NCBI GenBank assembly: GCA_963664115.2
Contig: CAXWPJ010000012.1
Location: forward strand, 320,001 to 384,000
Direction: 5' to 3'
Length of the DNA: 64,000 nt
Origin: Terriglobia bacterium
Lineage (GTDB): Bacteria > Acidobacteriota > Terriglobia > 20CM-2-55-15
The position numbers and the translations under genes are program-made. The notes under the pieces are model-generated. The model had not been told where the DNA came from. It ran no database searches and saw only the letters and a list, made by a program, of their open reading frames with translations. Every line of letters begins with the position of its first letter. Position 1 is the stretch's first letter. Positions 7,264 through 33,869 of the stretch are shown here, in pieces.

Positions 7264-7617
7264 GGGGGCGCACCGGTTTCGACGGATGCGAAGATGCAGG
7301 AGATGCATACCGAGGTTCCACGATCCTCGTAAAACGCGTGGAAAACAATCAACTGCTGACAATCAGTTAGCAATGGCTGCCTAATACGCAGCCACGTCCT
7401 TGGTTAATTCGCCTGTAGGTTGATTAAAGGGCGTCACTTTTTGCAGGATAGCCTGTTGCGGCTGGCCCGGCGGCGGCGGGTGAAACTCAATGGGCTGGTG
7501 TTCCGGCCGGGTTGCAGGTGCCTTCGGGCCGGGACACGAGACAAATAGGAACCTGACAAGTATGTAGATTCTTCTGTTGAACGTTTTCGGACGCGGGTTC
7601 GATTCCCGCCGCCTCCA
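7264..7617 (+). ncRNA. ssrA: tmRNA
   Basis: 5' GGGGGCG...GGTTTCGAC; tag ORF 7355-7384 ADNQLAMAA*; 3' T-arm GCGGGTTCGATTCCCGC and acceptor CGCCTCCA; TATAAT at 7245-7250. Confidence 0.96.
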
Positions 7618-8369: not shown

Positions 8370-8393
8370 AAATCACTTCTCGGACGTTGAGAA
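8370..8393 (+). repeat. 40-bp site, copy a (right half only)
   Basis: AAATCAC-TTCTCG-GACGT-TGAGAA. Confidence 0.8.
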
Positions 8394-8494: not shown

Positions 8495-8623
8495 ATGGAA
8501 TCTGGCACCAAACTCGGCCACTACGAGATCTCAACGCTCTTAGGTACGGACCAGGCCGACGCTCCCGCGAACCTCATCGCCGTACAGAACTGGCTCGAGG
8601 AGCTGATGCGGCTCGTGCCTTGA
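8495..8623 (+). pseudogene. Internally deleted Ser/Thr kinase gene (first 17 codons fused to the C-terminal tail)
   Basis: MESGTKLGHYEISTLLG (near-identical to the 15431 kinase start) + ...LIAVQNWLEELMRLVP*. Confidence 0.8.
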
Positions 8624-8832: not shown

Positions 8833-9726
8833 CTACCGGGAGCCGCTGGTGCCGGCCGCTGAGTAGGCGTTCTCGTTGAAGAAGTCCTCTTCGCTGGGAA
8901 CGCAAGGTTGATCCCACAGCTCGGCGCCGGGAGCCAACTTGGTCGTGAACACCTGGCCGACCCACGGTTCCGTATAAACCTCGGGATCGTAAATTGTGAG
9001 CTGGGATTCCAGGGTCCCGTAGGTCGGACGGCTCCACCGTTCGACGATCCGCATGTTGTTGGTGTGGGGCGCGCCGCCACCCGATGCCCGGGGGTCCTCG
9101 ACCTCAACTTCAAGGATCCACGAACGGTCGTCGAACCAGGCGGACTCGACGACGAACGTGTCACCCTCCCAGTGGCCGACGTTCCAGCCATTAAAGTTCA
9201 TCACCGGGGGCTCTTCCTCCGGAAGCTCGCGGCCGTCGGTATAAATCGTGCGCCAGGTGTGCTGGTACTCGAAGAACTGTAGAACCCGGTCGGGCAACAT
9301 CACGAACTCGAAGCCGCGGTTCTGGTTATAAAGCCGGGGCCAGCCCAACGGATCACAGGCCAGGAGTCCGAGGTCCTTTTCCGAGCCGCCATTTCCATAG
9401 ATCGGGAACCCGTCCGAGGTGAATTCTTCACCGCGAGTGTCCTCGAAGAGTTCCTCTCCGTACTCGGTGAAGGGAGGACGGGGCACCATGGAATCGCGTG
9501 CGCCGATATGACCCCAGACACCGGAAAGATCGCGCCGGTCGTAGTCGGTGATCTCGTCGATCCGGTTCTGGGCCCAGGCTTCGTCCCTGTCGGCGTTGTT
9601 CTGGCAGCGCGAGCAAGGGTACCAACCCTCCGGGAATTGAGCCGCTCGGCTCTCTTGGGCCAGCGCGAGCGACAGGCACAGGACAGCCGCCGTGACCACT
9701 GTCAGAATGACGATTCGATTTCGCAT
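8833..9726 (-). CDS. Secreted uncharacterised protein (DUF6152-partner type)
   Basis: Signal peptide; CSRCQNN; DLSGVW, CDPLGWPR, RTIYTDGR, GHWEGDTFVVES, DPEVYTEPW; paralog of 30695-31561. Confidence 0.85.
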   Translation of the reverse strand: MRNRIVILTVVTAAVLCLSLALAQESRAAQFPEGWYPCSRCQNNADRDEAWAQNRIDEITDYDRRDLSGVWGHIGARDSMVPRPPFTEYGEELFEDTRGEEFTSDGFPIYGNGGSEKDLGLLACDPLGWPRLYNQNRGFEFVMLPDRVLQFFEYQHTWRTIYTDGRELPEEEPPVMNFNGWNVGHWEGDTFVVESAWFDDRSWILEVEVEDPRASGGGAPHTNNMRIVERWSRPTYGTLESQLTIYDPEVYTEPWVGQVFTTKLAPGAELWDQPCVPSEEDFFNENAYSAAGTSGSR

Positions 9727-12108: not shown

Positions 12109-12281
12109 ATCGATCTTGCCTCCCGAAGTCCTCGCTCGCCGGCAGCCAGACTACGGCAACGATGACAACGACGATTGATTGCAACCGCACGACCGGGTTC
12201 GGTGTCCTTCAGAATCCCCACTTCGCCCGAGCCGCCTTTTCGGATTCCCGCTCGCTCGGCGCCGGGGCTGGGTGCCACGGG

Positions 12282-12351
12282 TGTACGTCGTCAAAGTAAT
12301 TCGCCCAGAATTGCGGATCTGCCAAGAGACGGTTTTTACGTTATACCACTC
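12282..12351 (-). mobile_element. Isolated end of the IS3-like element (related to 16235-16304)
   Basis: TGTACGTCGTCA...AAGAGACGGTTTT...GTTATACCACTC matches the end at 16235. Confidence 0.75.
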
Positions 12352-12411: not shown

Positions 12412-12544
12412 ACGACCATGAAAATGATTCTCAAGTCCTGTATCTGGACTCCTCTGTCAAGTAGGCGCAGCTCTCCCGTCAGCTTTCTTCGGCAAAATGC
12501 ATTCAGCAGGACTGACTAGAAGTTACGAGGTGAGTAGCTAGTCG

Positions 12545-12680
12545 ACTGCACCCGTATCTTCGGCCTCAAAAGTGGAACTGTATTGTTCCAGGCCATGATG
12601 GAAATTTGCGCGCGGGGAGCCAACCGATAAAATAACGGCCTCTAAGGGCCAAAGGACTTGTCGGCGTTGCCCCGCGCCGG
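12545..12680 (-). ncRNA. Predicted bridge/seek RNA of IS1111-A (boundaries approximate)
   Basis: Two stem-closed loops, each with an inner hairpin; guide segments match the target (CAAGTCCT, GATAAA) and the donor junction (CCATCAT, TATCT). Confidence 0.75.
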
Positions 12681-12748
12681 TCTGACCGGTACGCCATCAT
12701 CTCGAACCTCATCGCAGCTCGCTGAAAAGATATTCCGACTGTTCCGGG

Positions 12749-13783
12749 TCAGGCCGCCTGATACCGGGCCTGATGGTCACAGTCACGGTTCCAAACCGCC
12801 CACACGCGACGCGCCAACTTGTTGGCCAGTGCAACGATTGCCTTGTTGTGTCCGCGGAACTCGTGTTTCTGGAGACCCCATTGCTGGAGAGGTGTCGGTG
12901 TGGCGCCCTCTCGATGGGCACTCCACAACAGGGAACGGCCCCCATGAACCAACAGCATCCGGAGGTAACGATCGCCTTGCTTACTGATCCGGCCCATGCG
13001 TCGCTGGTTGCCACTGGAATGTTCCCGGGGTGTGAGTCCCAGATAACTGGCAAAATGGCGGGACGTTCGGAATCGTTTGATGTTTCCAACAAACCCCACC
13101 ATTGCCGTTGCCGTTAACAGGCCGATGCCGGGAATCGACGTCAGACGCGCGACCTCAGGCATCTGCCGAGCCAGCGTCTTCAACTCTTGTTCCACCGATC
13201 GCATGCGAGATTCCAATTCACGGATCTCGCCACACACCTGGTGAAACATCTCCCGAACGACACTGGGGATGACGACATCTGCATCTTCGATCAGCTCCAT
13301 TACCCCCGGCACCAGATGATCCGCTCCGGTCGGGATCACGTAGCCAAACTCCCGTAACAACCCCCGCACCGTATTGATCCGTGCGGTTCGGGTTCGCATC
13401 CACGCCGAACGGATTCGATGCAATGAGGTCAGTTGCTGTTGGGCCAGGGTTTTGACCGGCACTGGATGAATATCGCTGTCACGATAGGCTTCCAACAATC
13501 CTTTCACATCCGTACGGTCGGTCTTGTTGCGCCTGACGTAGGGCGTCACATACTGCGGCGAGATCAGAACGACCGTGTGTCCCAGTTCCCGGATCTTCCG
13601 ACCCCAGTAATGGGCGGATCCGCAGGCTTCCATCACCACGGTCGCCAGCTCCTGGTTCGCAAAGAACCCCAGAAACTTTGCCCGACTTAAACGATAGGTT
13701 TTCTCTACATGCCCGGGGCGATCTGAAACACCAATTTGAAAAACATTCTTTGCCAGATCCACTGCTATCGTTCTATTCTTCAT
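12749..13783 (-). CDS. IS110 DEDD recombinase/transposase A
   Basis: IAVDLAK, VMEACG, KTDRTD, SIPGIG, PREHSSG; AGGAG RBS before ATG 13783. Confidence 0.95.
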   Translation of the reverse strand: MKNRTIAVDLAKNVFQIGVSDRPGHVEKTYRLSRAKFLGFFANQELATVVMEACGSAHYWGRKIRELGHTVVLISPQYVTPYVRRNKTDRTDVKGLLEAYRDSDIHPVPVKTLAQQQLTSLHRIRSAWMRTRTARINTVRGLLREFGYVIPTGADHLVPGVMELIEDADVVIPSVVREMFHQVCGEIRELESRMRSVEQELKTLARQMPEVARLTSIPGIGLLTATAMVGFVGNIKRFRTSRHFASYLGLTPREHSSGNQRRMGRISKQGDRYLRMLLVHGGRSLLWSAHREGATPTPLQQWGLQKHEFRGHNKAIVALANKLARRVWAVWNRDCDHQARYQAA

Positions 13784-14145
13784 CTCGGACTCCTTTTTGT
13801 TCACACGTACACGTGTTTCGCCCGCTTTATTGCGAGGCTCAAAATGACTTTGGCACTTCGATGCCGACTCAGTCATCAAAGAGGAGTCCATACCATCAAT
13901 AAATCATCTTCTCGGACGTTGAGAATTGTGCGGCAGGTTTTGCCCCTCACAGGGAAATTTCAGTCCTCTGTGGGCGGGCGCGGTGCCAAAGCCTACGCTG
14001 ATGCACGATGCCTTGCGGGACGAGGACTGCCAGTCTGCCCGACTGGCCGAACACCTCCTATCGTTCGTTTAAATCCCAGTTTCGCCTTTGCCTCTCGGGC
14101 GAATCGAGTAGAATTATCCGTATACCGAAAACCACGAGGGGAGTC

Positions 14146-15156
14146 ATGCGTCAGCCCAGCAAATACTACCGCGCAGCGACCTTAACGTGTTTGCTGCTGT
14201 GTCCCATCACCGCCACTGCTCACCATCACAGAATCAACTTCCTCGACACGACTATCGCCTTTTACGGTGAGATCACTCGCGTCGATTGGCAAAACCCACA
14301 TGTGTATTTCTACGTCGATGCCGAGGACAATAGCGGTCGCACCGTCACGTGGCAAATCGAGAGCGGATCAACACCCAGCTTGACGCGACGTGGATTCAGC
14401 CGGGACTCGCTTAAGGTCGGGGATATGGTCACCGTCCGCGGTAACCCGGACCGCAACCCGGAACGCAAGCGCCTTGTCGCGTCGACGTTCACCAACAGAG
14501 ACGGCACTAATTACGTACTGCAGGGCCGCGCGCCGAACCGCTCGGAGACTCCCCAGGCAATCACGACGAGCATCGCCGGAGTCTGGCAGTCTATTGGCGG
14601 TCCATACGATCGCACGAGGGCCGCAACCCACTTGCCGCTGACCGAGGCAGGCGAGGCAGCGGCTGCAAGATTCAACGTCAACAATGACCCGTTCGCGGAC
14701 TGCGTACCGCCGCCCGTGCCAGACAGCTTGAGCACACCGTATTTGCACGAGGTCATCATCGGTGACGGCACGATCACACTTCGTGAGGAATACTGGGAGA
14801 TCGATCGCACGGTCTATATGGATGGCCGCAGCCATCCGGAAGAGGGTCGACGGACGAATCAAGGACACTCGATCGGACGTTTTGACGGCGAAGTGCTCGT
14901 GGTCGATACCGTCTTATTCGATGACCACGCATTCGGGAATGGGAGTGGCATACCGAATGGTGCCCGAAAGCATATGGTCGAGCGTTATTCGCTGACTGAC
15001 AATGGCACGATGCTTACGATCGACTATGTATTGGAAGATCCCGAGTATCTGGCTGAGGCGGTCACCGACACCCGTCAGTGGCGTTACGCACCGGAACTCG
15101 AGCTGTTGCCGAACCAATGCGACCTGGAGAACGCACGCCGCTACGTGGAAGACTAG
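14146..15156 (+). CDS. Secreted DUF6152-like domain fused to a partner-type domain
   Basis: ATA-HHH after signal peptide, WQNPH, GDMVTVRG; C-half DPFADCVPP, RTVYMDGR, GHSIGRFDGEVLVVDT, DPEYL. Confidence 0.85.
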   Translation: MRQPSKYYRAATLTCLLLCPITATAHHHRINFLDTTIAFYGEITRVDWQNPHVYFYVDAEDNSGRTVTWQIESGSTPSLTRRGFSRDSLKVGDMVTVRGNPDRNPERKRLVASTFTNRDGTNYVLQGRAPNRSETPQAITTSIAGVWQSIGGPYDRTRAATHLPLTEAGEAAAARFNVNNDPFADCVPPPVPDSLSTPYLHEVIIGDGTITLREEYWEIDRTVYMDGRSHPEEGRRTNQGHSIGRFDGEVLVVDTVLFDDHAFGNGSGIPNGARKHMVERYSLTDNGTMLTIDYVLEDPEYLAEAVTDTRQWRYAPELELLPNQCDLENARRYVED

Positions 15157-15289
15157 ATCGCGGCAGTAGGAGTCTTCCCCGCGGCGGAACCGGCATATCG
15201 CGTTTTAACGGACGGCGGTATCGAGCCGATGTGGCCACTCAAGCTTTTCTACCGAGGCAAGTTTCTAACCTCAACAGCCCTGAAAATGA

Positions 15290-15329
15290 TTCTCAAGTCC
15301 TGAGAAATCATCTTCTCGGACCTTGAGAA
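15290..15329 (+). repeat. 40-bp site, intact copy d
   Basis: TTCTCA-AGTCC-TGAGAA-ATCATC-TTCTCG-GACCT-TGAGAA. Confidence 0.92.
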
Positions 15330-15359
15330 TTGGCCGTGATACTCGGGCTCACAACTTCC

Positions 15360-15389
15360 TTGCTTATAAACCCCACCGGTAGTTAGATT
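15360..15389 (+). promoter_or_regulatory. Putative promoter in the kinase leader (also 8424-8453 on + and 21918-21947 on -)
   Basis: TTGCTT-N18-TAGATT; TCGCCA-N18-TAGACT; TTGCTT-N18-TAGACT at the same offset after three copies of the site. Confidence 0.55.
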
Positions 15390-15430
15390 TATCCAACTTT
15401 TTCACGTTTCGTTTCGGCACACACTAATTT

Positions 15431-16234
15431 ATGGAATCCGGCACCAAACTCCTCCATTACGAGATCTCAACGCTCTTAGGTAAGGGCGGGATGGGAGAAG
15501 TGTGGCGTGCCAAAGACACCAAACTCGGACGTGAAGTCGCCATCAAGACGCTTCCCGAAGAGTTCGCCAGAGACGCAGATCGGTTGGCCCGCTTTGAACG
15601 TAAAGCGAAACTTCTTGCCTCTCTGAATCACCCCAACATCGCAGCCATTCACGGATTTGAAGAAGACAACGGGACGCACTTCCTTGTTTTGGAACTCGTC
15701 GAGGGGGACACCTTAGCCGACCGGGTGAAACGGGGTGCCGTTCCTGTTGAAGAATCACTCAAATTGGCTCTACAGATTGCCGAAGCGTTAGAGGCTGCGC
15801 ACGAGAAGGGTGTGATCCACAGGGATCTGAAACCGGCGAACATCAAGGTCACGCCCGATGACAAGGTTAAGGTGTTGGACTTCGGGTTGGCAAAAGCGTT
15901 TGAGGGAGAGGCTGTAGACGCAAACCTCTCGCAGTCCCCCACGCTGAGCATGGCAGCCACGCAGCAAGGAATCATTCTCGGGACAGCAGCCTATATGAGT
16001 CCCGAGCAGGCGAGTGGATCACCTACGGATAAGCGCGCAGATATTTGGTCCTTTGGCGTTGTGCTGTTTGAAATGCTTACCGGACGGCAGATGTTCACGG
16101 GCAAGACTGTGTCCCACATTCTCGCTGATGTCCTGCGTGCTGAGCCTGAGTGGAGCAGTTTACCGGCCAACCTACATCCGAGGCTTCGGATGCTGCTGGA
16201 ACGCTGCTTGGAGAAAGAAGCAAAAGACCGCTGC
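15431..16234 (+). pseudogene. Hanks-type Ser/Thr protein kinase, truncated by the IS3-like element
   Basis: GKGGMGEV, VAIK, HRDLKPAN, DFG, GTAAYMSPEQ; the frame runs into the IS end at 16235. Confidence 0.9.
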
Positions 16235-16293
16235 TGTACGTCGTCAGAATAATTCGGACAAAAAGACCATTTAGCTAAGAGACGGTTTTGAAG

Positions 16294-17277
16294 TTATACC
16301 ACTCCAATCCTAAGGTTCTCGATTTTGCGTCGAGCCAGCGTTTTTCTTTTGATCTGGTCACGACGTGCAAGGATCTGCTGATCCCTCCCGAAGAACACGT
16401 CAGCCGGTGTCACGTTGTTCAGAGATTCGTGATACCGATGGTGGTTGTAGTGTTCGACCCATTGCGCGATCGCCTGCTCAAGTTCCCACGGATAATAGTA
16501 GTGTTCCAACTTGACCACGTTCTTCATCGAACGGTGATAGCGTTCGATCTTGCCCTGTGTCATCGGGTGATAGGGCGCACCCCGGGTGTGTTCCATACCA
16601 CGACGTTGTAAATAGTCTTTGAGTTCGTGCGATACGTAGCAGGGGCCGTTGTCGCTCAACAATCGCGGTCGGTGCCGGACTTGTACTTGTCCGACATCTG
16701 TCGCCTGTAGTGCAACGTCCAGCGTGTCCTGAACGTCAGATGCGGCCATGGTTTGAAAGAGCTTCCAGGCGATGATGTAGCGAGAGTAATCGTCCAGCAC
16801 GGTCGACAGGTAGTACCAACCCCAACCGACGACCCTGAAGTAAGTGAAATCAGTTTGCCAGAGTTCGTTCACACGCCGGGTTGGCTGCTGGAAGTGATCG
16901 CTGGCCGTCATCACGATGTATGCGGGACTGGTGATCAGGTCGCATCTCTTCAGAATCCGATACACGCTGGATTCGGAGATGAAGTAGTCCTGGGTGTCGG
17001 TGATCTGCCAGGCCAGTTCCCGCGGTGAGGCTTCCGGGTGGTTCAACGCGGTTTCGACCACCTGTTCCCGCACCGGTCCCGGAATCCGGTTCCAGCAGAA
17101 GCCGGGGCCGGAATGCCGATCTAACAAGCCGGCTGCGCCACGCTCTTTGTATCGTCGATACCAACCGTAGAACGTGCTGCGGGGGACGCCCAGCTCCCGG
17201 AGGGTCGCTGTCACCGACAACTCCGAGTCTTCCACCACTCGGATCGTCTCCAGCTTCTCAGATCCCGATTGCCTCAT
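16294..17277 (-). CDS. Transposase OrfB (rve integrase core)
   Basis: WQTDFT, LDDYSR, LSDNGPCY, PYHPMTQGKIER. Confidence 0.92.
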   Translation of the reverse strand: MRQSGSEKLETIRVVEDSELSVTATLRELGVPRSTFYGWYRRYKERGAAGLLDRHSGPGFCWNRIPGPVREQVVETALNHPEASPRELAWQITDTQDYFISESSVYRILKRCDLITSPAYIVMTASDHFQQPTRRVNELWQTDFTYFRVVGWGWYYLSTVLDDYSRYIIAWKLFQTMAASDVQDTLDVALQATDVGQVQVRHRPRLLSDNGPCYVSHELKDYLQRRGMEHTRGAPYHPMTQGKIERYHRSMKNVVKLEHYYYPWELEQAIAQWVEHYNHHRYHESLNNVTPADVFFGRDQQILARRDQIKRKTLARRKIENLRIGVV

Positions 17278-17615
17278 ATATCGATGCTCTCGGAGTCCGT
17301 TACGTTCAACGTTTTTTTCAGAAAACGATTCTTTAGCAGTATTTCGGCTACGACCTGCTTCAGCTGTTCGTTCTCCTGGCGTAATTCAGTGACTTCGCTC
17401 GATGTCGCTTCCCGCTTCGTGTCCCCAGCCAGCCGTTTCTTCCCCGCCTCCAGGAAGTCCTTGCTCCACCGGTAATACAAATTCGATGGAATCCCTTCGC
17501 GTCGGCACAGCGCTGCGATGCTCTCTTCGCCTCGCAGTCCTTCCAACACAATCTCGCACTTTCTCTTCCGACGAATCTCCCGTACCCGATTCTCTGCCGA
17601 CACTTTCTCACTCAT
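17274..17615 (-). CDS. Transposase OrfA (HTH), possibly with a short deletion
   Basis: IVLEGLRGEESIAALCRREGI...YYRWSKDFLEAGKKRL. Confidence 0.85.
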   Translation of the reverse strand: MSEKVSAENRVREIRRKRKCEIVLEGLRGEESIAALCRREGIPSNLYYRWSKDFLEAGKKRLAGDTKREATSSEVTELRQENEQLKQVVAEILLKNRFLKKTLNVTDSESIDI

Positions 17616-17775
17616 TCGATCCTCCTTCAGATCGTTCTGATTAGAAAAGTGTCTCTTAGTTTTTTAGGGTATTTCGTACGAAATGCTCTGACGGGCTACA
17701 ACTACGTGTTGTCAGAGCCGTTGAAGTGCCCGCGATGTATGGCGGTGGTTATTGAGAAGTCCTTTGGCCCATCGC

Positions 17776-18350
17776 TTACTTAAAATTGGCATCCGACAAC
17801 TTTTTATGAAGCTTGTCTTCTAGATCTTCAAAATTCCCATCTTTATCTTGATCTGGCACTTCCTTCTCGAACCATTGTTCTTCAACGTCAAGGTCAAAGT
17901 CTGGAAATCGGCCCCCAGTCTGGTTTCGGCTTGTCATCAGGGTCAGTGTCCCACCGTCCGAGCAATCGCACCGCCCAATACATTTTCGCTGCTGTGTACC
18001 AATCAACTCCATCACACCGCATAGCGTGATAGAACATCTTGTCCACATTCTTCCTTTCAATGTTTCTTGGTTCACGATCTGGCAGCGGGTAGTAGCAATC
18101 GTGAATGACGGCAGCACGACGGAAGTCACCAACGTAAGGCGAGCCATAACGCCTTCCCCAAAGAAACTCTGGGATATTTGCACCGCTGATTTCATCGCCC
18201 TCTTCTGCAAGCCGTGTATGGGGTCTTGTCTGGGTCCGTGTAAGTAAAGTCACAGTGGAGTCTCATATGTTTGTCTTTTCCGTTGTCGTCCCTTAGCCAC
18301 CGAGTGATCGGTACTTCGTCTCCTTCTTGGAACTCTCCATGATTACCCAT
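17776..18350 (-). pseudogene. DUF1353-like protein, frameshifted
   Basis: MRLHCDFTYTDP in one frame; GANIPEFLW-G-SPYVG-FRRAAVIHD, VDKMFYHAM in another; shift near 18210. Confidence 0.65.
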
Positions 18351-18419
18351 GTCCTTATCTCCAAAGTGAGGATGGCGTGGTGGTAGGCACGAAGATCGAT
18401 GCTTAAAGAGAACATTCGC

Positions 18420-19223
18420 ATGCCCGTGCATCGTTTGATTATCGGCGGCACAATCGCTTTGATCTTCGGTGCTGGCATAGTCCGGGCTCAGGATTCGCAC
18501 CCAGACTTCACGGGAATCTGGAGTGGTAGCTTCACGACGCAGGACAACGACTTCTGGGGAGCAGAGGACTTCACGGCGTGCTTCGCGGGCTGCACGCCTG
18601 CGTCTCGCGAGCATCTGTTGGCCCTGTTCGACGACCCAGCTAATGACGATCAATCTGTTAGGGAACTTTGGGATCAAACTGTCGCGTTTATGCGTCAAGA
18701 GCTGGCTGCAAAAGCCACACCGGAAGGATTGGCTCTGCAAAACGCCAACACGACGGCCAACGATCCGACAATTCTATGCAAGCCGTATGGGATCGTGCGC
18801 CAAGCAGCCAGTCCGTTACCGATGGCGGTTCGTCGCGACGGCGAAAATCTTGTCCTTGATTATGAGGAATGGAATCTAAGCCGCACAGTTTACATGGATG
18901 ACAGGAGCGAACCAGCCGACTTAACGTCTACACCGCTTGGTCATTCGGTTGGTTCCTACGAAGGTAACGTTCTCGTAATCAGTTCCTCTGGCATAGAAGG
19001 AGATATCTATTACTCATTTCAAAGCGGTGGTGGCTATAGTGATCAGGTATCAGTGGACGAGCGATATACAATTCACGACAATCCGAGACGCTTAGTGCTT
19101 GAGATGACTGTGACGGATCCCGTGACGCTCACCGAACCACACCTCACCGAGAAAATATGGCTGTGGACCCCCGATGTCGAAATGATCGAGGACAGCTGCG
19201 GTGACATTCCCGGACAACCCTGA
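18420..19223 (+). CDS. Secreted uncharacterised protein (DUF6152-partner type)
   Basis: Signal peptide; PDFTGIW, DPTILCKPYG, RTVYMD, GHSVGSYEGNVLV, DPVTLTEP. Confidence 0.85.
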   Translation: MPVHRLIIGGTIALIFGAGIVRAQDSHPDFTGIWSGSFTTQDNDFWGAEDFTACFAGCTPASREHLLALFDDPANDDQSVRELWDQTVAFMRQELAAKATPEGLALQNANTTANDPTILCKPYGIVRQAASPLPMAVRRDGENLVLDYEEWNLSRTVYMDDRSEPADLTSTPLGHSVGSYEGNVLVISSSGIEGDIYYSFQSGGGYSDQVSVDERYTIHDNPRRLVLEMTVTDPVTLTEPHLTEKIWLWTPDVEMIEDSCGDIPGQP

Positions 19224-19248
19224 GCAATGTATGTTGAGGAGATGGCTA

Positions 19249-19671
19249 ATGAAATCGATAGTCCTCAGGTCGTTTGTTAGTGCCGTACTACTGTTCTCTT
19301 CGCAGGCGAGTGCGCATCATGCCGCGGCCGTGCTGTATCACCTCGACCAGCAGGTCACCATCGAAGGTGTCGTCACGGAGTTTAGGCTTGGCAATCCCCA
19401 TGCGCGTATCTATATGACTGTCAGGAATGCGAACGGTGAGGAAAACCAATGGATGGCTGAAGGCGGTTCACGCACTGTTCTGACCAGGAACGGTTGGACT
19501 GGCGACGAGCTGCATGTGGGTGACGCCGTCACGATTATCGGTAACCCGTCGCGCAACGGTTCGAGAGTCATCCACTGGGAGAAAGTGGTATTGCCCGACG
19601 GCACCGAACGTTGGGGCGAGGATGTCCCGGAGGATTCCGTTCTCGAAGAGCTGCGCCAGCGACGCCGTTGA
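19249..19671 (+). CDS. DUF6152-like secreted protein
   Basis: ASA-HH, GVVTEF, NPH, W-AEGG, GW, GDAVTIIG. Confidence 0.85.
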   Translation: MKSIVLRSFVSAVLLFSSQASAHHAAAVLYHLDQQVTIEGVVTEFRLGNPHARIYMTVRNANGEENQWMAEGGSRTVLTRNGWTGDELHVGDAVTIIGNPSRNGSRVIHWEKVVLPDGTERWGEDVPEDSVLEELRQRRR

Positions 19672-19824
19672 GCACGAGCCGCGTTTGGCGTTGACGCGAG
19701 GAGCAACAGCACGCCGCGAACGCTTTTGCGAGGGAGCATGGTCCCCGCCCCTTCTAGCATGCCTGTTTGACCTTGGATCGCCGGGCCCAGTCTAAAAAAC
19801 ACCTGAATAAGGTGGGCGCTGAAA

Positions 19825-19864
19825 TTCTCAACGTCCGAGAAGATGATTTCTCAGGACTTGAGAA
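19825..19864 (-). repeat. 40-bp site, intact copy e (inverted)
   Basis: Reverse complement = TTCTCA-AGTCC-TGAGAA-ATCATC-TTCTCG-GACGT-TGAGAA. Confidence 0.92.
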
Positions 19865-19907
19865 CCTATCGATCAACCGACTGAAAGAAGTAGGGCTTCT
19901 TCGCCGC

Positions 19908-21755
19908 CTACCAACCCGCCGCCTGACCGTCCTTGCGGTGATCGGATCCGGCGCGGTAGATGCCGTTGACGGGATGATCCTCGTCGATGCTCTCGGGTCC
20001 GAACGTCGGTAAAGGAAGGCTCGGATCTCGGGTAAACAAAATGCCCTGGTAGCCTCCGACCGCACTACCGGTGACCGCGCACACGCGGTGGCCCTTGGCC
20101 TCTAGGGTGGCGCCGACCAGGTCAAACAGGTGACTTTCTAAAGACAGCACATCCGAGCCCTGGTTGTGGGTGAAGCGCGCCGCGTCCGTGGTCATCTGTA
20201 TGTTCATACCGTGATCGATGAGATTCACAATGTGTTGTGCATGTGTCTCGGGCTGCACGCTGCCGCCCATGTTGCCAAACGTCATCATAGGGTTGCCGTT
20301 CTGCGCGACGAACCCGGCGATGATCGTGTGAAACGGTCGCTTGCGGGGAGCAACAACATTCGGGCTCTCGGGGTCCAGCGAAAAGGCAGCACCGCGATTC
20401 TGAAGAACGAAGCCGTAGGGGGACACGGTCGCGCCGCTGCCGTACACCGAGAACACGCTGTGGATGAGGGACACCATGTTGCCCCACCGATCGGCTGTGG
20501 TGAGGTAGATCGTGCCGCCGTCCAGTCCGCCGCTGACCGGGGGGGCCGAGGCGCTGTCCATGCTGATTTTCCCACAGAGCGTGGCAGCATACGACTTCGA
20601 GAGCAACTCACCGACGGGAACGCGCGAAAACTCCGGATCGGCGTTATACGCGTAGAGGTCCGAATAGGCTAGTTTCTTGGCTTCGATAAGGAAGTGCCAG
20701 TAGTCCGGGTTCGTAGGTCCGAGTTGAGCCAGGTCCACGCCGTGCACCGGCGCGCAAACCTCGAGGATGTTGAGCATCTCTAGGGCGGCAAAGCCCTGGC
20801 CGGGGGGAGGCAGCTCGAAAACGTCGTAGCCGTGATAATTGGTGGAAACCGGCTCCACCCATTCGGACTCGAACTCCGCCAGGTCGGCCCTAGTCATCAC
20901 GCCACCGTTGGCCTGCACCTTGGCGACGATGGCATCGGCGATCTCGCCCTCGTAGAAGGCCTCGCGGCCCCGTTCCTGCATCAAGCGCAAGGCCGCCGCC
21001 AATTCCGGATTGCGCACCAGGCTGTACAGCGCCGGTGCTCTTCCGTCGTTCAGGAACGTTCGGTTGGAGTCGGGATCGCCACGGAGCTTTCCCTGGACGG
21101 CGACGATGTCGCGGTGGCGGCGCTCCGACTGCCCCCAGCCCTCCTCGGCAAGCTGGGCGGCTCGTGCAAACGTCTCACGGAACGTTAGGGTGCCGAAGCG
21201 TTGTAACAGGGCATCGTAGCCGGAGATGGCGCCCGGGACAGTGGTGGCATTCACTCCGCTTCCGGGCATCCGTTCCAGGCCGAGCTCGTCGCGAAAGAAC
21301 TCCGGTGTCCATCCCGCCGGTGCCCAGCCGGCGGAATTCAATGCATACAGTCTGTTGTCCTGGGCCACCCAAACGAGTGCGAAAAGATCGCCGCCAATGC
21401 CCGTGTCGTTCTGCGAAGTCACGTCCAGGACGGCGCCGGCCGCGACCGCCGCATCAATGGCGTTCCCGCCTCGCTGCAGGATTTCCAGCCCGGCCTGGAC
21501 CGCCAGTGGATCGCTGGTCGCCACGATCCCGTGACGGGCCAGCACCTCCGACCGGCCCTGCGCCAGCCAGCCCTGTGCTCTTGAGCCCGGTACCGCGGCG
21601 ATGGTGGCGGCAGGATTTGGCGCGTCTTCGGTAGGAGTCCCGAACGCGCTAGGCGACTGCACCGCCAGAGACAAGGGCGCCGCCAGCAAGACGGCGGCCA
21701 ACGCCGCGCACAAGAGATCCGCCCACCGACGAACGCTTCTGGTCTCTCTCTCCAT
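19908..21755 (-). CDS. ggt: Gamma-glutamyltransferase family protein, secreted
   Basis: GGNAIDAAVA, TGIGGD-F, TVPG, nucleophile region GTIYLTTADRWGN, PRKRPFHT, SDHRKDG. Confidence 0.92.
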   Translation of the reverse strand: MERETRSVRRWADLLCAALAAVLLAAPLSLAVQSPSAFGTPTEDAPNPAATIAAVPGSRAQGWLAQGRSEVLARHGIVATSDPLAVQAGLEILQRGGNAIDAAVAAGAVLDVTSQNDTGIGGDLFALVWVAQDNRLYALNSAGWAPAGWTPEFFRDELGLERMPGSGVNATTVPGAISGYDALLQRFGTLTFRETFARAAQLAEEGWGQSERRHRDIVAVQGKLRGDPDSNRTFLNDGRAPALYSLVRNPELAAALRLMQERGREAFYEGEIADAIVAKVQANGGVMTRADLAEFESEWVEPVSTNYHGYDVFELPPPGQGFAALEMLNILEVCAPVHGVDLAQLGPTNPDYWHFLIEAKKLAYSDLYAYNADPEFSRVPVGELLSKSYAATLCGKISMDSASAPPVSGGLDGGTIYLTTADRWGNMVSLIHSVFSVYGSGATVSPYGFVLQNRGAAFSLDPESPNVVAPRKRPFHTIIAGFVAQNGNPMMTFGNMGGSVQPETHAQHIVNLIDHGMNIQMTTDAARFTHNQGSDVLSLESHLFDLVGATLEAKGHRVCAVTGSAVGGYQGILFTRDPSLPLPTFGPESIDEDHPVNGIYRAGSDHRKDGQAAGW

Positions 21756-21859
21756 GTCGAGCTCCTATTGGTTGAGGGTATTGTCAGGTTAAATCGGTCA
21801 CGGCGCCATGCCGGGATGAAAAATCGCCGATCTCGCGACCTTAGTGCTCTGGCTCGTTG

Positions 21860-21876
21860 TTGGTGCCGGAGTCCAT
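21860..21876 (-). pseudogene. Kinase start remnant after the shared leader
   Basis: ATGGACTCCGGCACCAA (MDSGT) at the same distance from site f as the kinase ATGs from sites a and d. Confidence 0.65.
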
Positions 21877-22169
21877 CGTTTTACTATGTCGCGCAAAGGA
21901 ACCGCGTAATTCTGGCAAGTCTATCTATGTGGAAGGGTTATAAGCAAGAAAAGGCGCAACTCCCGCATCTTACCCAATTCTCAACGTCCGACAAGATGAT
22001 CTATGAAAGGGGATGTCAAGAGAAACAGCTCCCCGATGGCCGGCCAGGCGGACACTTTTGTCGTGACAGCCAGCCCCTCTACCGTTATGTGAAGCCCTGG
22101 TTCCGGCAATCCGCAGCGAAATCGTACATCTTTAAGACGGTCGATTCAGAAACTGAACAGCAGATGGGA

Positions 22170-22305
22170 CGGCATGTGCCGACCATGGATCTATCTGAGC
22201 CTCGAAGGCTATCGCTGTTTCAGGTCGTGCGAGGGGGGATAGAGATTTAAAAGTGTCCTCTGGACGTATCCAGGGACCACATCTTGTGCAGATCCTCACC
22301 CTCGA
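22170..22305 (-). ncRNA. Predicted bridge/seek RNA of IS1111-B (boundaries approximate)
   Basis: Loops with inner hairpins; guides GATTTA/CATCTTGT match the target, GATCTAT/ATCGCTGT match the donor junction. Confidence 0.75.
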
Positions 22306-22370
22306 TCCTCAGTTGTTCCGACTCCGTCTAACGACTCAGTACGGCTCTACCGGTCACGGATCGAAACGGC

Positions 22371-23435
22371 TTATGTTGTCATCCAGCTCAGTTTCTTTGG
22401 ATCGAACGATTCTCCTTTCTTCCAAAGCGTCAGCACCAGTGCGGCGATCTTACGGGCCAGAGTGACCCGCGCCATTTCCTCCCGCATCCCACGCATCTGG
22501 AGACTCTCCAGATAAATCCGATACGGCTCGCTTTGTTTTCCCGATGCCGCGGCTGAGAAGAACACCGACTTCAATCGCCGGTTGCAGTTCGCATTCAATC
22601 CGCGTGTGGCCACCGGTTTCCTCCGTCGCACCACACGTCCACTCTGCATCTCATACTCCGCGCTCATGTGGGTCACCACACCCAGGCCACTGTAGCTCCA
22701 GAACTGCGGTGTCGTGCGGAATCGGTACGGCGTGTCCACGATGGCGACGATCTGTGCCGCCCGAACCGGTCCCAGTTGTGGAATGGTCTCGAGCAGTTTC
22801 ACCGCCTCATGGTGCCGGCCCTCCACTCGCACCGCTTTTCTGGATTGTTTCCGCAGCAACTGGACCTGGTCCAGTTCCGCATACAACCATCGGGCGCGCT
22901 GCCTCATCCCCGGCTCGGTCAGCTTCTCCAACCACTGTTCGCGCTGACTCGGCCGATAGACTCCGTCCTTCGGTGTCGGGATCCCCCGTCCCCGGTATAT
23001 CGCTTTGATCCGCGACATCACCCGTTGCGTGTCCAACTGGAACGTGTCATAGGCCTGCACCAGTTGCTTCAATTCTCGCGTCGCTTCATGGCCGTGATAC
23101 ACCGAGCGCAACAGTCCCACCCGCAACAGCTCGGCCAGCTTCCGCGCATCCGGCTTATCCCCCTTCGACCCTTCTTGCATCCACTTGTTCTGTCGCGGAT
23201 CGCACACCACCACCTCGCTCACCCACGGCCGGATCACTTCCGATAACCAGCCCGCTTGCGTGGTCTCCTCCAACCCCACGTGCATCGGCCCACTCAATCC
23301 CTCCAGCAGCCGTGTGATACTCCCCGCCTCGGTTTCCACGATCGTTTCAAACACCAGTTTGCCGCTCCCGTCTCTCACCGCAACCACCGTCGTTGCCTGG
23401 TGCACATCCATACCCATATACTTGTCTTGTTTCAT
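22371..23435 (-). CDS. IS110 DEDD recombinase/transposase B
   Basis: GMDVH, LEET, KGDKPDA, TIPQLG, FWSYSGL...HMSA; AGGAG RBS. Confidence 0.93.
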   Translation of the reverse strand: MKQDKYMGMDVHQATTVVAVRDGSGKLVFETIVETEAGSITRLLEGLSGPMHVGLEETTQAGWLSEVIRPWVSEVVVCDPRQNKWMQEGSKGDKPDARKLAELLRVGLLRSVYHGHEATRELKQLVQAYDTFQLDTQRVMSRIKAIYRGRGIPTPKDGVYRPSQREQWLEKLTEPGMRQRARWLYAELDQVQLLRKQSRKAVRVEGRHHEAVKLLETIPQLGPVRAAQIVAIVDTPYRFRTTPQFWSYSGLGVVTHMSAEYEMQSGRVVRRRKPVATRGLNANCNRRLKSVFFSAAASGKQSEPYRIYLESLQMRGMREEMARVTLARKIAALVLTLWKKGESFDPKKLSWMTT

Positions 23436-23574
23436 CTCGAACGCTCCTTTTCTGGGATCAACGCTGTATACGTTGATCAGGTTGTTGAGTGAGTCTTCTC
23501 TCAACAACCCCCAGTCTAGGGGCGTCCTTTCATACTGCGATTTATCGGGATCTGAGAATCAATTTCACTGCTAT

Positions 23575-23632
23575 CTACGGAACCGGCACCCGTTCCTTCA
23601 GTTCTTCAAACCAGTTCTGGCAGATGTCGATT
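23575..23632 (-). pseudogene. Ser/Thr kinase-family C-terminal tail
   Basis: IDICQNWFEELKERVPVP*. Confidence 0.75.
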
Positions 23633-23661
23633 GTTGGGGAGAAGGGGCGAACACTTACTCC

Positions 23662-23750
23662 CTCATTCGATCCTCCTTCAGATCGTTCCAATCAGCAAAG
23701 TGTCTCTCAGTTTTTCAGCGGTTTCTGTCCGAAATGCTCTGACGGGCTAC
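23662..23750 (-). mobile_element. Isolated end of the IS3-like element (related to 17611-17700)
   Basis: CTCATTCGATCCTCCTTCAGATCGTTC...GAAATGCTCTGACGGGCTACA. Confidence 0.85.
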
Positions 23751-23828
23751 AATCCGCAAGCAATACTTTGCGGGGCATGTTTTAATGTCGGTCGAGGTTT
23801 CCAGAGAATGTTGATTCGGAGGTAGGAC

Positions 23829-30694: not shown

Positions 30695-31561
30695 TCATCG
30701 AACTTCATCGCGCGAGTTAAATTCGTCCAGCTCGGTCGCCACGCACATACTCTCCCATATCTCCGTTTCGGGAACCAGCCGGATCGTGGCAGTCTCGGTC
30801 ACCCAAGGCTCGGTATACACCAGTGGATCGATTATCGTCAGCTCGGCTTCCAGCGTGCCGTAGGTCGTACGCGTGTAGCGTTCGATGACTCGCATCTGGT
30901 CGCTGTGGGGCAGGCCGCCGCCAGCGATGTCGCCCTCGGCGGCGGTTCTGTCGATCCAGGACCGCTCGTCATATCCGTTCGACTCGATCACCAAGGTGTC
31001 GCCCTCCCAGTGAGCGACGTTCCATCCCAGCCAATTCAACACCGGAGCTTCCTCGGGAAGTTCCCGGCCGTCGGTCCAAATGGTGCGCCAGGTGTGCTCC
31101 AATTCGAGGAACTGGACGACCTTGCCGGGGAGCATCGCGAACTCGAACCCGTAGTTGTATGTATACATCCGCGGCCAGCCCAGTGGATTGCAGTCCAGGA
31201 GCCCGTAGTCCTTCTCCGAACCGCGCCCGTAGAGCCAATCCCCGTTCTGGCTTTTTAGTTCGGCCTGCGTCTCCGCGTGCAGCTCCCGTCCGTACTCTGT
31301 CAGAGGCGGCGGGTTTCTGAACGCATTGCTGACACCGTCATATCCCCATACTCCCGACAGATCATGCCTGTCGTAGTCCGTAATCTCGTCAATGTTGTTA
31401 CGTGCCCAGGCTGCGGTTCTGTCCGCGTTGTTCTGGCACCGCGGGCAATCATTCCAGCCCTCCGGGGTTTGAGCCCGGGCAAGACCGTCCTGGGCCAGCG
31501 CGAGGGACAGTCCGAGCACCGATGCCACGACCACTGCCGCGATAAAGATTCGATTCCGCAT
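30695..31561 (-). CDS. Secreted uncharacterised protein (partner type), paralog of 8833-9726
   Basis: CPRCQNNADR, DLSGVWG, CNPLGWPR, WEGDTLVIES, DPLVYTEPW. Confidence 0.87.
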   Translation of the reverse strand: MRNRIFIAAVVVASVLGLSLALAQDGLARAQTPEGWNDCPRCQNNADRTAAWARNNIDEITDYDRHDLSGVWGYDGVSNAFRNPPPLTEYGRELHAETQAELKSQNGDWLYGRGSEKDYGLLDCNPLGWPRMYTYNYGFEFAMLPGKVVQFLELEHTWRTIWTDGRELPEEAPVLNWLGWNVAHWEGDTLVIESNGYDERSWIDRTAAEGDIAGGGLPHSDQMRVIERYTRTTYGTLEAELTIIDPLVYTEPWVTETATIRLVPETEIWESMCVATELDEFNSRDEVR

Positions 31562-31844
31562 TGTAGTTAAACCCCCTAGTTCTTCTTCATACACCTGAGA
31601 CACGGATGACAAACGCTACAATAATCAATGCTCGCCAAATCTCCGGGACCCACCTTACTGATAATAGCCGTTCCGGAGGATAGTCAAAACAACAGCACTT
31701 TTTCAATGAAAATTAGATCATGCGCAGTGGTTTCATTGCGCGATCAAGGCAATTACGACCGTCGAGGTGAACCGAAAAGCTAAAGAGACGGGCTATTGAA
31801 CTGGAAGCTGCCCCGATGGCGCGGGTAGCGGGAACAACGAGAAC

Positions 31845-33723: not shown

Positions 33724-33797
33724 GGATGCCATATTCGGGAGACCTAAGCGGAGAACTGGTGTTTGACGCCGACCAGTTGAGCGTTCCAATCGTAGAG

Positions 33798-33869
33798 AGC
33801 GATCCAGCTGAAGACAGCGACCCAGTTGAAGACAGCGATCCCGTCGGAGACAGCGATCCAGTCGAAGAC
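33798..33869 (+). repeat. 18-bp imperfect tandem repeat x4 (SDPVED)
   Basis: AGCGAYCCNGYYGRAGAC x4 inside short ORF 33726-33917. Confidence 0.75.

Follow-up and report, generated by a model that had tools for sequence, protein, structure and literature searches.

Two unrelated IS110-family insertion sequences in one 40-bp repeat, a likely dif-module-like recombination site, of a Terriglobia genome

Insertion sequences (IS) of the IS1111 type in the IS110 family (ISEc11, ISKpn4, ISPa25 and ISPa11) combine a DEDD transposase with a downstream non-coding region for a seekRNA or bridge RNA, as described in passages of PMC11187229 and PMC11208160. Parts of PMC11187229 give them sub-terminal repeats with extensions of 7 and 3 bp, no target duplication and a top-strand match 5' of the bottom-strand match, and excerpts of both papers report that ISKpn4 and ISPa25, 46% identical, have the same attC target. 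In sections of PMC10132070, elements of the IS1202 family are described as hunters of the dif-module sites of Acinetobacter; they encode DDE transposases, insert in a fixed orientation 5 bp outside the XerC arm, make a 5-bp duplication and leave the site whole. The 64,000-nucleotide stretch analysed here (the window, G000:C12:320001-384000, where G000 is the source genome, a Terriglobia bacterium, and C numbers are its contigs) contains two IS110-family elements, A and B, each of which splits a copy of one 40-bp repeat, hereafter the site. Element A shows the IS1111 features listed above, and element B has the DEDD transposase, the absence of target duplication and a downstream non-coding region with predicted guides in the same order. 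Like the IS1202 family, both seek a dif-like site in fixed orientation; unlike IS1202, they insert inside the site and have predicted RNA guides.

Sites of comparable build have also been described. The pdif/dif modules of Acinetobacter, in sections of PMC13141974, resemble the present system in having two arms, a 6-bp spacer and a XerC-type arm, as well as modules with either arm inside, empty mini-modules, modules fused through direct repeats, and shuffling at the sites. Unlike pdif, the second arm is here not of the XerD type, the conserved part of each arm is longer, at 14 bp, the chromosome has about 160 copies with one dominant spacer, and there are only two spacer classes, set by three bases next to the left arm. 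The attP(TLC) and difGGI sites of integrative mobile elements exploiting Xer (IMEX), in passages of PMC5357621, likewise have an intact XerC arm and a strongly divergent XerD arm and are nevertheless recombined by XerCD. Their spacer is that of the chromosomal dif, where they integrate, whereas the present spacers differ from that of the host dif and the sites occupy many islands.

The site is a dyad of 17+6+17 bp. Element A was found between its positions 13|14, in the left arm of a plus-strand site, and element B between positions 18|19, in the spacer of a minus-strand site, with TC common to element and target; the cut points are five bases apart within the site. Both transposase genes lie on the minus strand and the two sites face opposite ways, so that A and B are oppositely oriented relative to the site. 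This agrees with the earlier note on the window, which had described two divergent IS110 elements entering one repeat in opposite orientations, a few bp apart and with different motifs and repeats. The features concerned are as follows.

12428..12440, plus strand: site positions 1-13 (outer left arm), severed by element A
12441..13898, minus strand: element A, IS110 family, IS1111 type, 1458 bp
12610..12677, minus strand: predicted target-binding loop (predicted RNA) in the downstream non-coding region of A
12749..13783, minus strand: transposase A, 344 aa, DEDD and Transposase_20
13899..13925, plus strand: site positions 14-40 (inner left arm, spacer ATCATC, right arm) past element A
21978..21999, minus strand: site positions 19-40 (remaining spacer, right arm) past element B
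22000..23540, minus strand: element B, IS110 family, 1541 bp
22230..22304, minus strand: predicted target-binding loop of B
22371..23435, minus strand: transposase B, 354 aa
23541..23558, minus strand: site positions 1-18 (degenerate left arm) ahead of element B

PF01548 and PF02371 were recognized in both transposases, which are 23% identical over 293 aa and carry different motifs (VDLAK/EACG in A, MDVH/EETT in B). The 344 aa of transposase A fall within the range of IS1111 transposases (330-350 aa). The scores of the two against NF033542 were 317 bits for A and 122 bits for B, the latter below the cut-off of 140. The sub-terminal repeats also differ, being ATGGACTCCTCT in A (11/12) and TATGAAAGG in B (9/9). 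Element A ends in TGATGGT plus the repeat on the left and the repeat plus ATA on the right, and makes no target duplication; these 7 and 3 bp beyond the repeat are the extensions of the IS1111 rule as given in part of PMC11187229. A two-base TA or AT core for A was ruled out, since varying homolog flanks fix the ends with no core shared with the target. The ends of B are compatible with 7+3 extensions given an 8-bp repeat, which is below the usual 11-13, and a TC core and a place in a distant clade distinguish B from the IS1111 elements described (its transposase was compared with A and with the homologs collected). The downstream non-coding regions measure 308 bp in A and 371 bp in B, and in both the guide order is IS1111-like, with the top-strand match before the bottom-strand match. 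When the ends were joined, the predicted circle junctions read TTGACA-N17-TGGTAT for A and TTGACA-N17-CAGTAT for B, as the earlier note had anticipated. The -35 box is perfect and retained in most homologs, and the -10 box matches TATAAT at 3/6 positions in both; as read from these boxes, the junction promoters would be weak in the -10, and their activity is not supported so far.

Insertion into the site was found to be strict. In the source genome, 18/19 A-type ends (left 7/8, right 11/11) and 15/15 B ends (left 8/8, right 7/7) fell in the site, whereas the control elements gave 1/23 (IS3-like) and 0/27 (IS630). Ten of the A-type right ends were in the left arm; the eleventh, which comes from a relative, was in the right arm. 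In one A copy the left flank is off the site, as would follow from a deletion made by the IS. In genome G002 a single site carries both a B-type and an A-type element (L066, L044). One A copy and one B copy (C10:425328 and C9:938003) are each broken by the same 1.85-kb element at CTAG. Empty alleles, which the earlier note had proposed to look for, were sought in the source genome and 30 fetched regions, where they were obtained for 1/7 complete B copies and 0/7 complete A copies, and for neither of the window's own copies. The B pair (C11:2637 filled, C6:45070 empty) has identical flanks, which confirms the ends of B and the absence of target duplication; the direction of change is not given by the pair. 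In contigs of six public runs, joints that skip A have 26-27 bases per side and are indistinguishable from other copies of the site, and no circle joint was present among the matches listed. Eight sites lack exactly three spacer bases (C2:255643, C9:1129197, C12:552695, C2:757900, C2:1000416, C9:1144098, C9:1227631 and C9:1118041), and 6/8 have T at position 15, the variant preferred by B; such losses are possible scars of imprecise excision, or slippage.

A transposase tree was built with 27 of the 60 loci collected, under midpoint rooting and leaving out reference proteins; a wider homolog search for A gave 7990 matches lacking context, and these were set aside. The A and B groups were separated with full support, with between-group identities of 21-30%, and each element was placed among kin with other targets. 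The label "in site" needs three changes on this tree, at least two of them forced by well-supported branches. The phylogeny that the earlier note had called for thus speaks for separate origins. Among 25 A-type loci in other genomes of the family, seven are in the site (75-93% identical) and 17 at other targets (61-78%), with one unclear. The 24 B-type loci comprise one fragment in the site (97.5%), 20 loci elsewhere (48-70%) and three without located ends. The motif is therefore absent from the flanks of 20/21 B homologs with located ends. Taken to the letter this contradicts what the earlier note expected of homolog flanks, but what it really shows is that retargeting was recent.

Alignment of the non-coding regions revealed a conserved stem and internal loop in which two variable loop segments track the target. 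These segments (guide 1 and guide 2) are ACAAGTCCT and TTTATC in A, ACAACGTCCG and TTTCTC in the relative of A that targets the right arm, and ACAAGATG and TAAATC in B, with different sequences in kin that have different targets. According to the prediction, guide 1 of A (12653-12660) pairs with the right flank and guide 2 (12626-12631) spans the insertion point; in B, guide 1 is placed at 22280-22287 and guide 2 at 22244-22249, and a donor-matching segment lies at 22188-22194, downstream of the predicted loop. Guide 1 matched its own flank over at least 6 bases in 10/14 A-type and 9/12 B-type rows, near-copies included, against a mean match of 2.7-4.5 bases with the flanks of other elements. 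The variants hit were restricted to ATAA for A (7/7; 34/158 intact sites have it) and to T at position 15 for B (8/8; 40/158 intact sites), a choice that fits the predicted bases of guide 2 and may be due to them.

These data, in line with the convergent targeting claimed in the earlier note, make it very probable that two unrelated IS110-family lineages converge on one site. Reprogramming of the guides, themselves predicted, is well supported by the comparison as the way in which they did so. Convergence of two elements is known in kind from ISKpn4 and ISPa25; unlike that pair, A and B are only 23% identical, cut 5 bp apart and insert in opposite orientations.

Further elements enter the same site. 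One, which we take to be of the IS30 family from its motifs, inserts at the spacer centre in both orientations; its left ends are there in 8/8 cases, and of 17 right ends inspected by eye 14 are clear, two doubtful and one elsewhere. Its choice is less surprising because IS30 is known, from part of PMC9333248, to prefer nearly palindromic hot spots. Three ends of IS91-like elements lie at site position 15|16. Among copies of the IS91-like elements with an upstream tyrosine recombinase gene, 6/8 examined start in the site or within about 40 bp of it (C1:92965, C1:107675, C2:196490, C12:158198, C12:569262 and C3:2990 of G000). This recombinase was considered as the enzyme of the site and rejected, since those of its genes that lie near sites are parts of multi-copy IS91-like elements, themselves inserted in the site or next to it.

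A profile scan of the source genome gave 158 full sites, 48 left-only and 62 right-only matches, whereas shuffled sequence amounting to 2.6 Mb contained no full one, and the window has 10 half-site matches against 0.53 expected, which excludes chance. Of the 268 matches, 256 fall in 33 clusters that make up 12% of the genome, and only 7/33 clusters have a tRNA or tmRNA gene within 5 kb. The spacer is ATCATC in 124 sites and ACGACA or ACGACC in 18. The repeat was also present in records titled Terriglobia (Acidobacteriota) metagenome-assembled genomes. Within the class the site pattern was detected in 63/351 genomes, with 16/34 in the same family, 34/62 in a second family (f6) and 0/61, 4/60, 5/63 and 1/31 in four others; a reversed control pattern matched 18 genomes, so single matches are near chance, and the tally includes the unpublished G527 and G601 with one match each, on neither of which any claim rests. 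The arms are retained in 72 sites within 20 regions of five f6 genomes, and the spacers of these sites begin with GTC (34) or ACG (32) and vary in the last three bases. Eight metagenome contigs carry the same site variant; in viral contigs, four matches to the pattern were obtained and none passed the site profile. At the soil-type loci L138, L202, L212, L144, L207 and L211, sites adjoin what are presumably ABC-permease-like genes, with DPMVALRY/HE-type tails, and other presumed Ser/Thr kinase genes; both families are large in Acidobacteria.

One strand of the site folds as a hairpin (-12 kcal/mol, z about -5), as would a single-stranded substrate, either a repetitive extragenic palindrome (REP) for a Y1 (RAYT, REP-associated tyrosine) transposase or an attC-like site for an integron integrase. 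An attC site has RYYYAAC...GTTRRRY ends and a hairpin kept by compensatory changes, and in REP/RAYT systems a Y1 transposase gene is flanked by hairpin repeats. In this genome an integron-integrase-like gene was found, as were two Y1 genes, of which one lies 300 bp from a degenerate site; IS1111 elements are known to target attC and REP (part of PMC11187229). However, no compensatory changes were observed between dyad positions (T at 15 with A at 26 in 0/55), which points to a double-stranded binding site, and the AAC and GTT triplets never co-occur. The integron-integrase-like gene (C9:714590-715759) is 180 kb from the nearest site match, and 0/10 Y1 loci in five site-rich genomes have the site. 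An attC or REP identity was rejected on these grounds (no RYYYAAC...GTTRRRY with a compensatory hairpin, no Y1 linkage); a hairpin substrate is largely refuted and we consider it very improbable. In contrast with the attC, REP and transposon-end targets of IS1111, the target here is a dif-like double-stranded dyad.

The sites bound modules, as can be seen within the island of the window. Its left edge directly follows the tmRNA gene (the sole Rfam match in the window) and its right end is near 23750. Besides Ser/Thr kinase fragments, DUF6152 genes and a gamma-glutamyltranspeptidase gene, it contains an IS630, an IS3-like and two IS110-family elements. The remaining features are as follows.

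7264..7617, plus strand: tmRNA gene, island left edge (Rfam match)
8377..8393, plus strand: lone right arm of the site, about 100 bp upstream of a kinase remnant
8495..8623, plus strand: 42-aa mini-gene, first codons of the Ser/Thr kinase fused to its last codons
12370..12411, plus strand: kinase 3' remnant (NWFEELKERVPVL and stop), immediately upstream of the A-split site
14140..15156, plus strand: DUF6152 cargo gene between two direct-repeat sites (open reading frame from 14008; the start at 14140 is our reading)
15290..15329, plus strand: intact 40-bp site, spacer ATCATC
15431..16233, plus strand: 5' part of a Ser/Thr kinase gene, 101 bp past the site, interrupted by the IS3-like element
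19825..19864, minus strand: intact 40-bp site, spacer ATCATC
19908..21755, minus strand: gamma-glutamyltranspeptidase cargo gene between two direct-repeat minus-strand sites
23579..23622, minus strand: kinase 3' remnant ahead of the B-split site; island right edge

The IS3-like element (16234-17701) has left short end remnants at 12275-12351 and 23651-23752. Secreted-protein paralogs without a Pfam match lie inside (8833-9726) and outside the island (30695-31612) and are 72-77% alike in DNA, and four to five tandem 18-bp units occupy 33780-33869.

Site-bounded segments recur at other loci with 91-99.7% identity (for example, C2:264297-265623 equals C6:43763-45089 at 99.3%). Fourteen site pairs share only downstream DNA and nine only upstream DNA, with the break inside the 40-mer. 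The spacer class follows orientation: neighbouring sites are inverted in 27 cases and direct in 55 in G000 (22 and 23 in f6), and those facing opposite ways differ in class in 22/27 cases in G000 and 21/22 in f6. Five inverted pairs are 97-98 bp apart. Contigs C6 (1-46165) and C11 (1-83160) contain two versions of one region, more than 99.6% identical in blocks, which differ by IS insertions, IS ends and one break inside a site; they may be strain variants or a duplication. The Ser/Thr kinase gene (about 880-900 aa) is represented in G000 by some 50 fragments and four or five whole copies, nearly all site-linked. Unrelated cargo is enclosed by its first and last codons, a pattern to be expected if new modules formed through replacement of the middle of the gene.

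The kinase linkage, with 68/124 ATCATC sites after a 3' remnant and 15/22 ACG-class sites before a start, could also be expected if the repeat were an operator or the passive end of a kinase module, the breakpoints resulting from homologous recombination over 40 bp or from IS. The crossover position, which is blurred, and the A copy with an off-site left flank would fit as well. Against this, unrelated cargo is flanked by sites at both gene ends, in two families orientation and spacer class go together, the right arm fits the XerC consensus, and a spacer fixed at 6 bp, with its first triplet conserved, is more than an operator would require. We regard an operator or passive end as improbable and the 40-bp repeat, with good confidence, as a recombination site. 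The earlier note had taken convergent targeting as evidence of a widespread functional element. Abundance and a position at module junctions were confirmed, but the site is widespread in two families only. From the convergence of independent elements it follows only that the site is conserved and present in many copies; its function is supported instead by the breakpoints, the spacer classes and the XerC-like arm.

One important question is which recombinase acts on the site. The host has genes for XerC (C9:863231) and XerD (C2:150455) and a canonical dif near C2:108138, at the GC-skew change; hence, the site, which is not single-copy at the terminus, was ruled out as the chromosomal dif. The inner right arm ACGTCCGAGAA matches at 10/11 positions the XerC arm consensus ACGTCCGATAA of 21 dif sites (the host's own and 20 fetched from the 33 listed in the class, the unpublished G404 being excluded), and its outer 7 bases, which were not fixed by the dif search, outscore all but 2 in 10,000 random 11-mers. 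The participation of host XerC, to which we incline with modest confidence, is suggested by this resemblance.

Several observations weigh against such a Xer system. None of the 158 left arms reaches 9/11 to any of the 21 XerD arms, and each side is conserved over 14 bp, which exceeds the Xer footprint of 11 bp. The 55 direct neighbour pairs of G000 are ATCATC repeats, unlike the strict alternation of pdif. The crossover was not placed in the spacer, with positions 15 and 26 tracking neither flank; the breakpoint pairs are non-independent, several coming from C6 and C11, and no site-bounded module recurs over its full length in the 20 regions that were fetched from G002. In addition, a tyrosine recombinase of another family adjoins the site in G000 and L126.

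The last of these (P0121 family; C5:52189-53139 in G000) might itself, as a dedicated mobile enzyme, recombine the site in place of host Xer, which would leave the part of the insertion sequences unchanged. Its gene lies between two sites in G000, and in L126 a site precedes it by about 100 bp; at 8/20 distinct loci of the family either the site or a dyad with a 6-bp spacer is upstream, and copies occur in site-rich stretches of G517 and G593. Yet no member was found at E 1e-30 in G002 (84 sites, 97% complete) or G003 (37 sites), both of the same genus. The family is common where the site is absent (f5 16/61, f4 20/60; the tally includes the unpublished G404) and rare in f6 (7/62). Only 2/27 further loci, and none of the closest relatives, have the upstream dyad, and no relative was found in viral contigs. 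Since its absence from two site-rich genomes and its spread are unlike those of the site, we consider a P0121-type enzyme unlikely and put host XerC first. The members at L162, L163, L168, L169, L234 and L236 have their own 6-bp-spacer dyad 60-180 bp upstream, resembling a plasmid resolution site. Three serine recombinase genes are listed in the genome.

XerH and XerS are single-protein systems that bind both arms. A single or otherwise different host protein, or XerC alone, might do the same here, or the partner might be a gene not identified. The left arm, more conserved than the right (above 90% at 10/11 inner positions, shared with f6) and weakly XerC-like (0.5% tail), and the 14-bp conserved arms are consistent with this; a third Xer-like gene common to site-rich genomes is not evident from PF00589 lists compared by length and position, and we hold such an arrangement to be quite unlikely. 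Host XerC with a second partner is preferred. A XerD arm was tested for and not found, so the site, although pdif-like in action, was not classed as pdif; judged by its sequence, it is likely a recombination site of the dif-module kind whose second arm is non-canonical and which serves as a landing pad.

Taken together, unrelated guide-bearing elements A and B on a dif-like module-shuffling site, with XerC on one arm and XerD or another protein on the divergent arm, form an explanation to which we give slightly better than even chances. A and B would form circles and use RNA-guided recombination to insert, a process that has been tested for ISEc11 and IS621. The target of each lineage may have been acquired through mutation of 6-9 guide bases, perhaps because landing in an abundant intergenic site is safe. 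Same-spacer sites would recombine, direct copies leading to excision and inverted copies to inversion or exchange, and gene modules would be shuffled inside genomic islands. An insertion separates arm from spacer and would thereby inactivate the junction. That such silencing is reversible, as the earlier note had suggested, is not supported so far, and published accounts differ: scarless excision is described in part of PMC11208160, whereas for ISEc11 a passage of PMC11187229 states that the regenerated target was not detected. A bolder version is less likely than not: XerC, redirected by a non-XerD partner or acting with XerD and an unknown activator, would serve hundreds of 40-bp sites in two spacer classes; this system would have spread a kinase module whose ends bracket most cargo, and its dominance would have made hunters of the site out of at least three transposase lineages, two of them RNA-guided.

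Literature searches at title and abstract level, with subscription journals and supplements mostly outside their reach, returned nothing relevant on this site or system in Acidobacteria, and nothing on IS110 elements at dif-like sites, although ISfinder target lists in supplements could hold related cases. The novelty lies in the target: in two acidobacterial families mobile modules are bounded by an abundant dif-like site, of which one arm is XerC-type and the other non-XerD. The kin of A and B offer, from two distant IS110 clades, a natural series of reprogrammed guides whose targets are resolved to single bases, and the B clade is not characterised as far as these searches show. The site may represent a third route, besides integrons and the dif modules of Acinetobacter, by which accessory genes are shuffled, here in a large, mostly uncultured phylum. 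If XerC, lacking its usual partner site, does act at some 160 places in the chromosome, the control that confines Xer recombination to dif would be bypassed in a new way.

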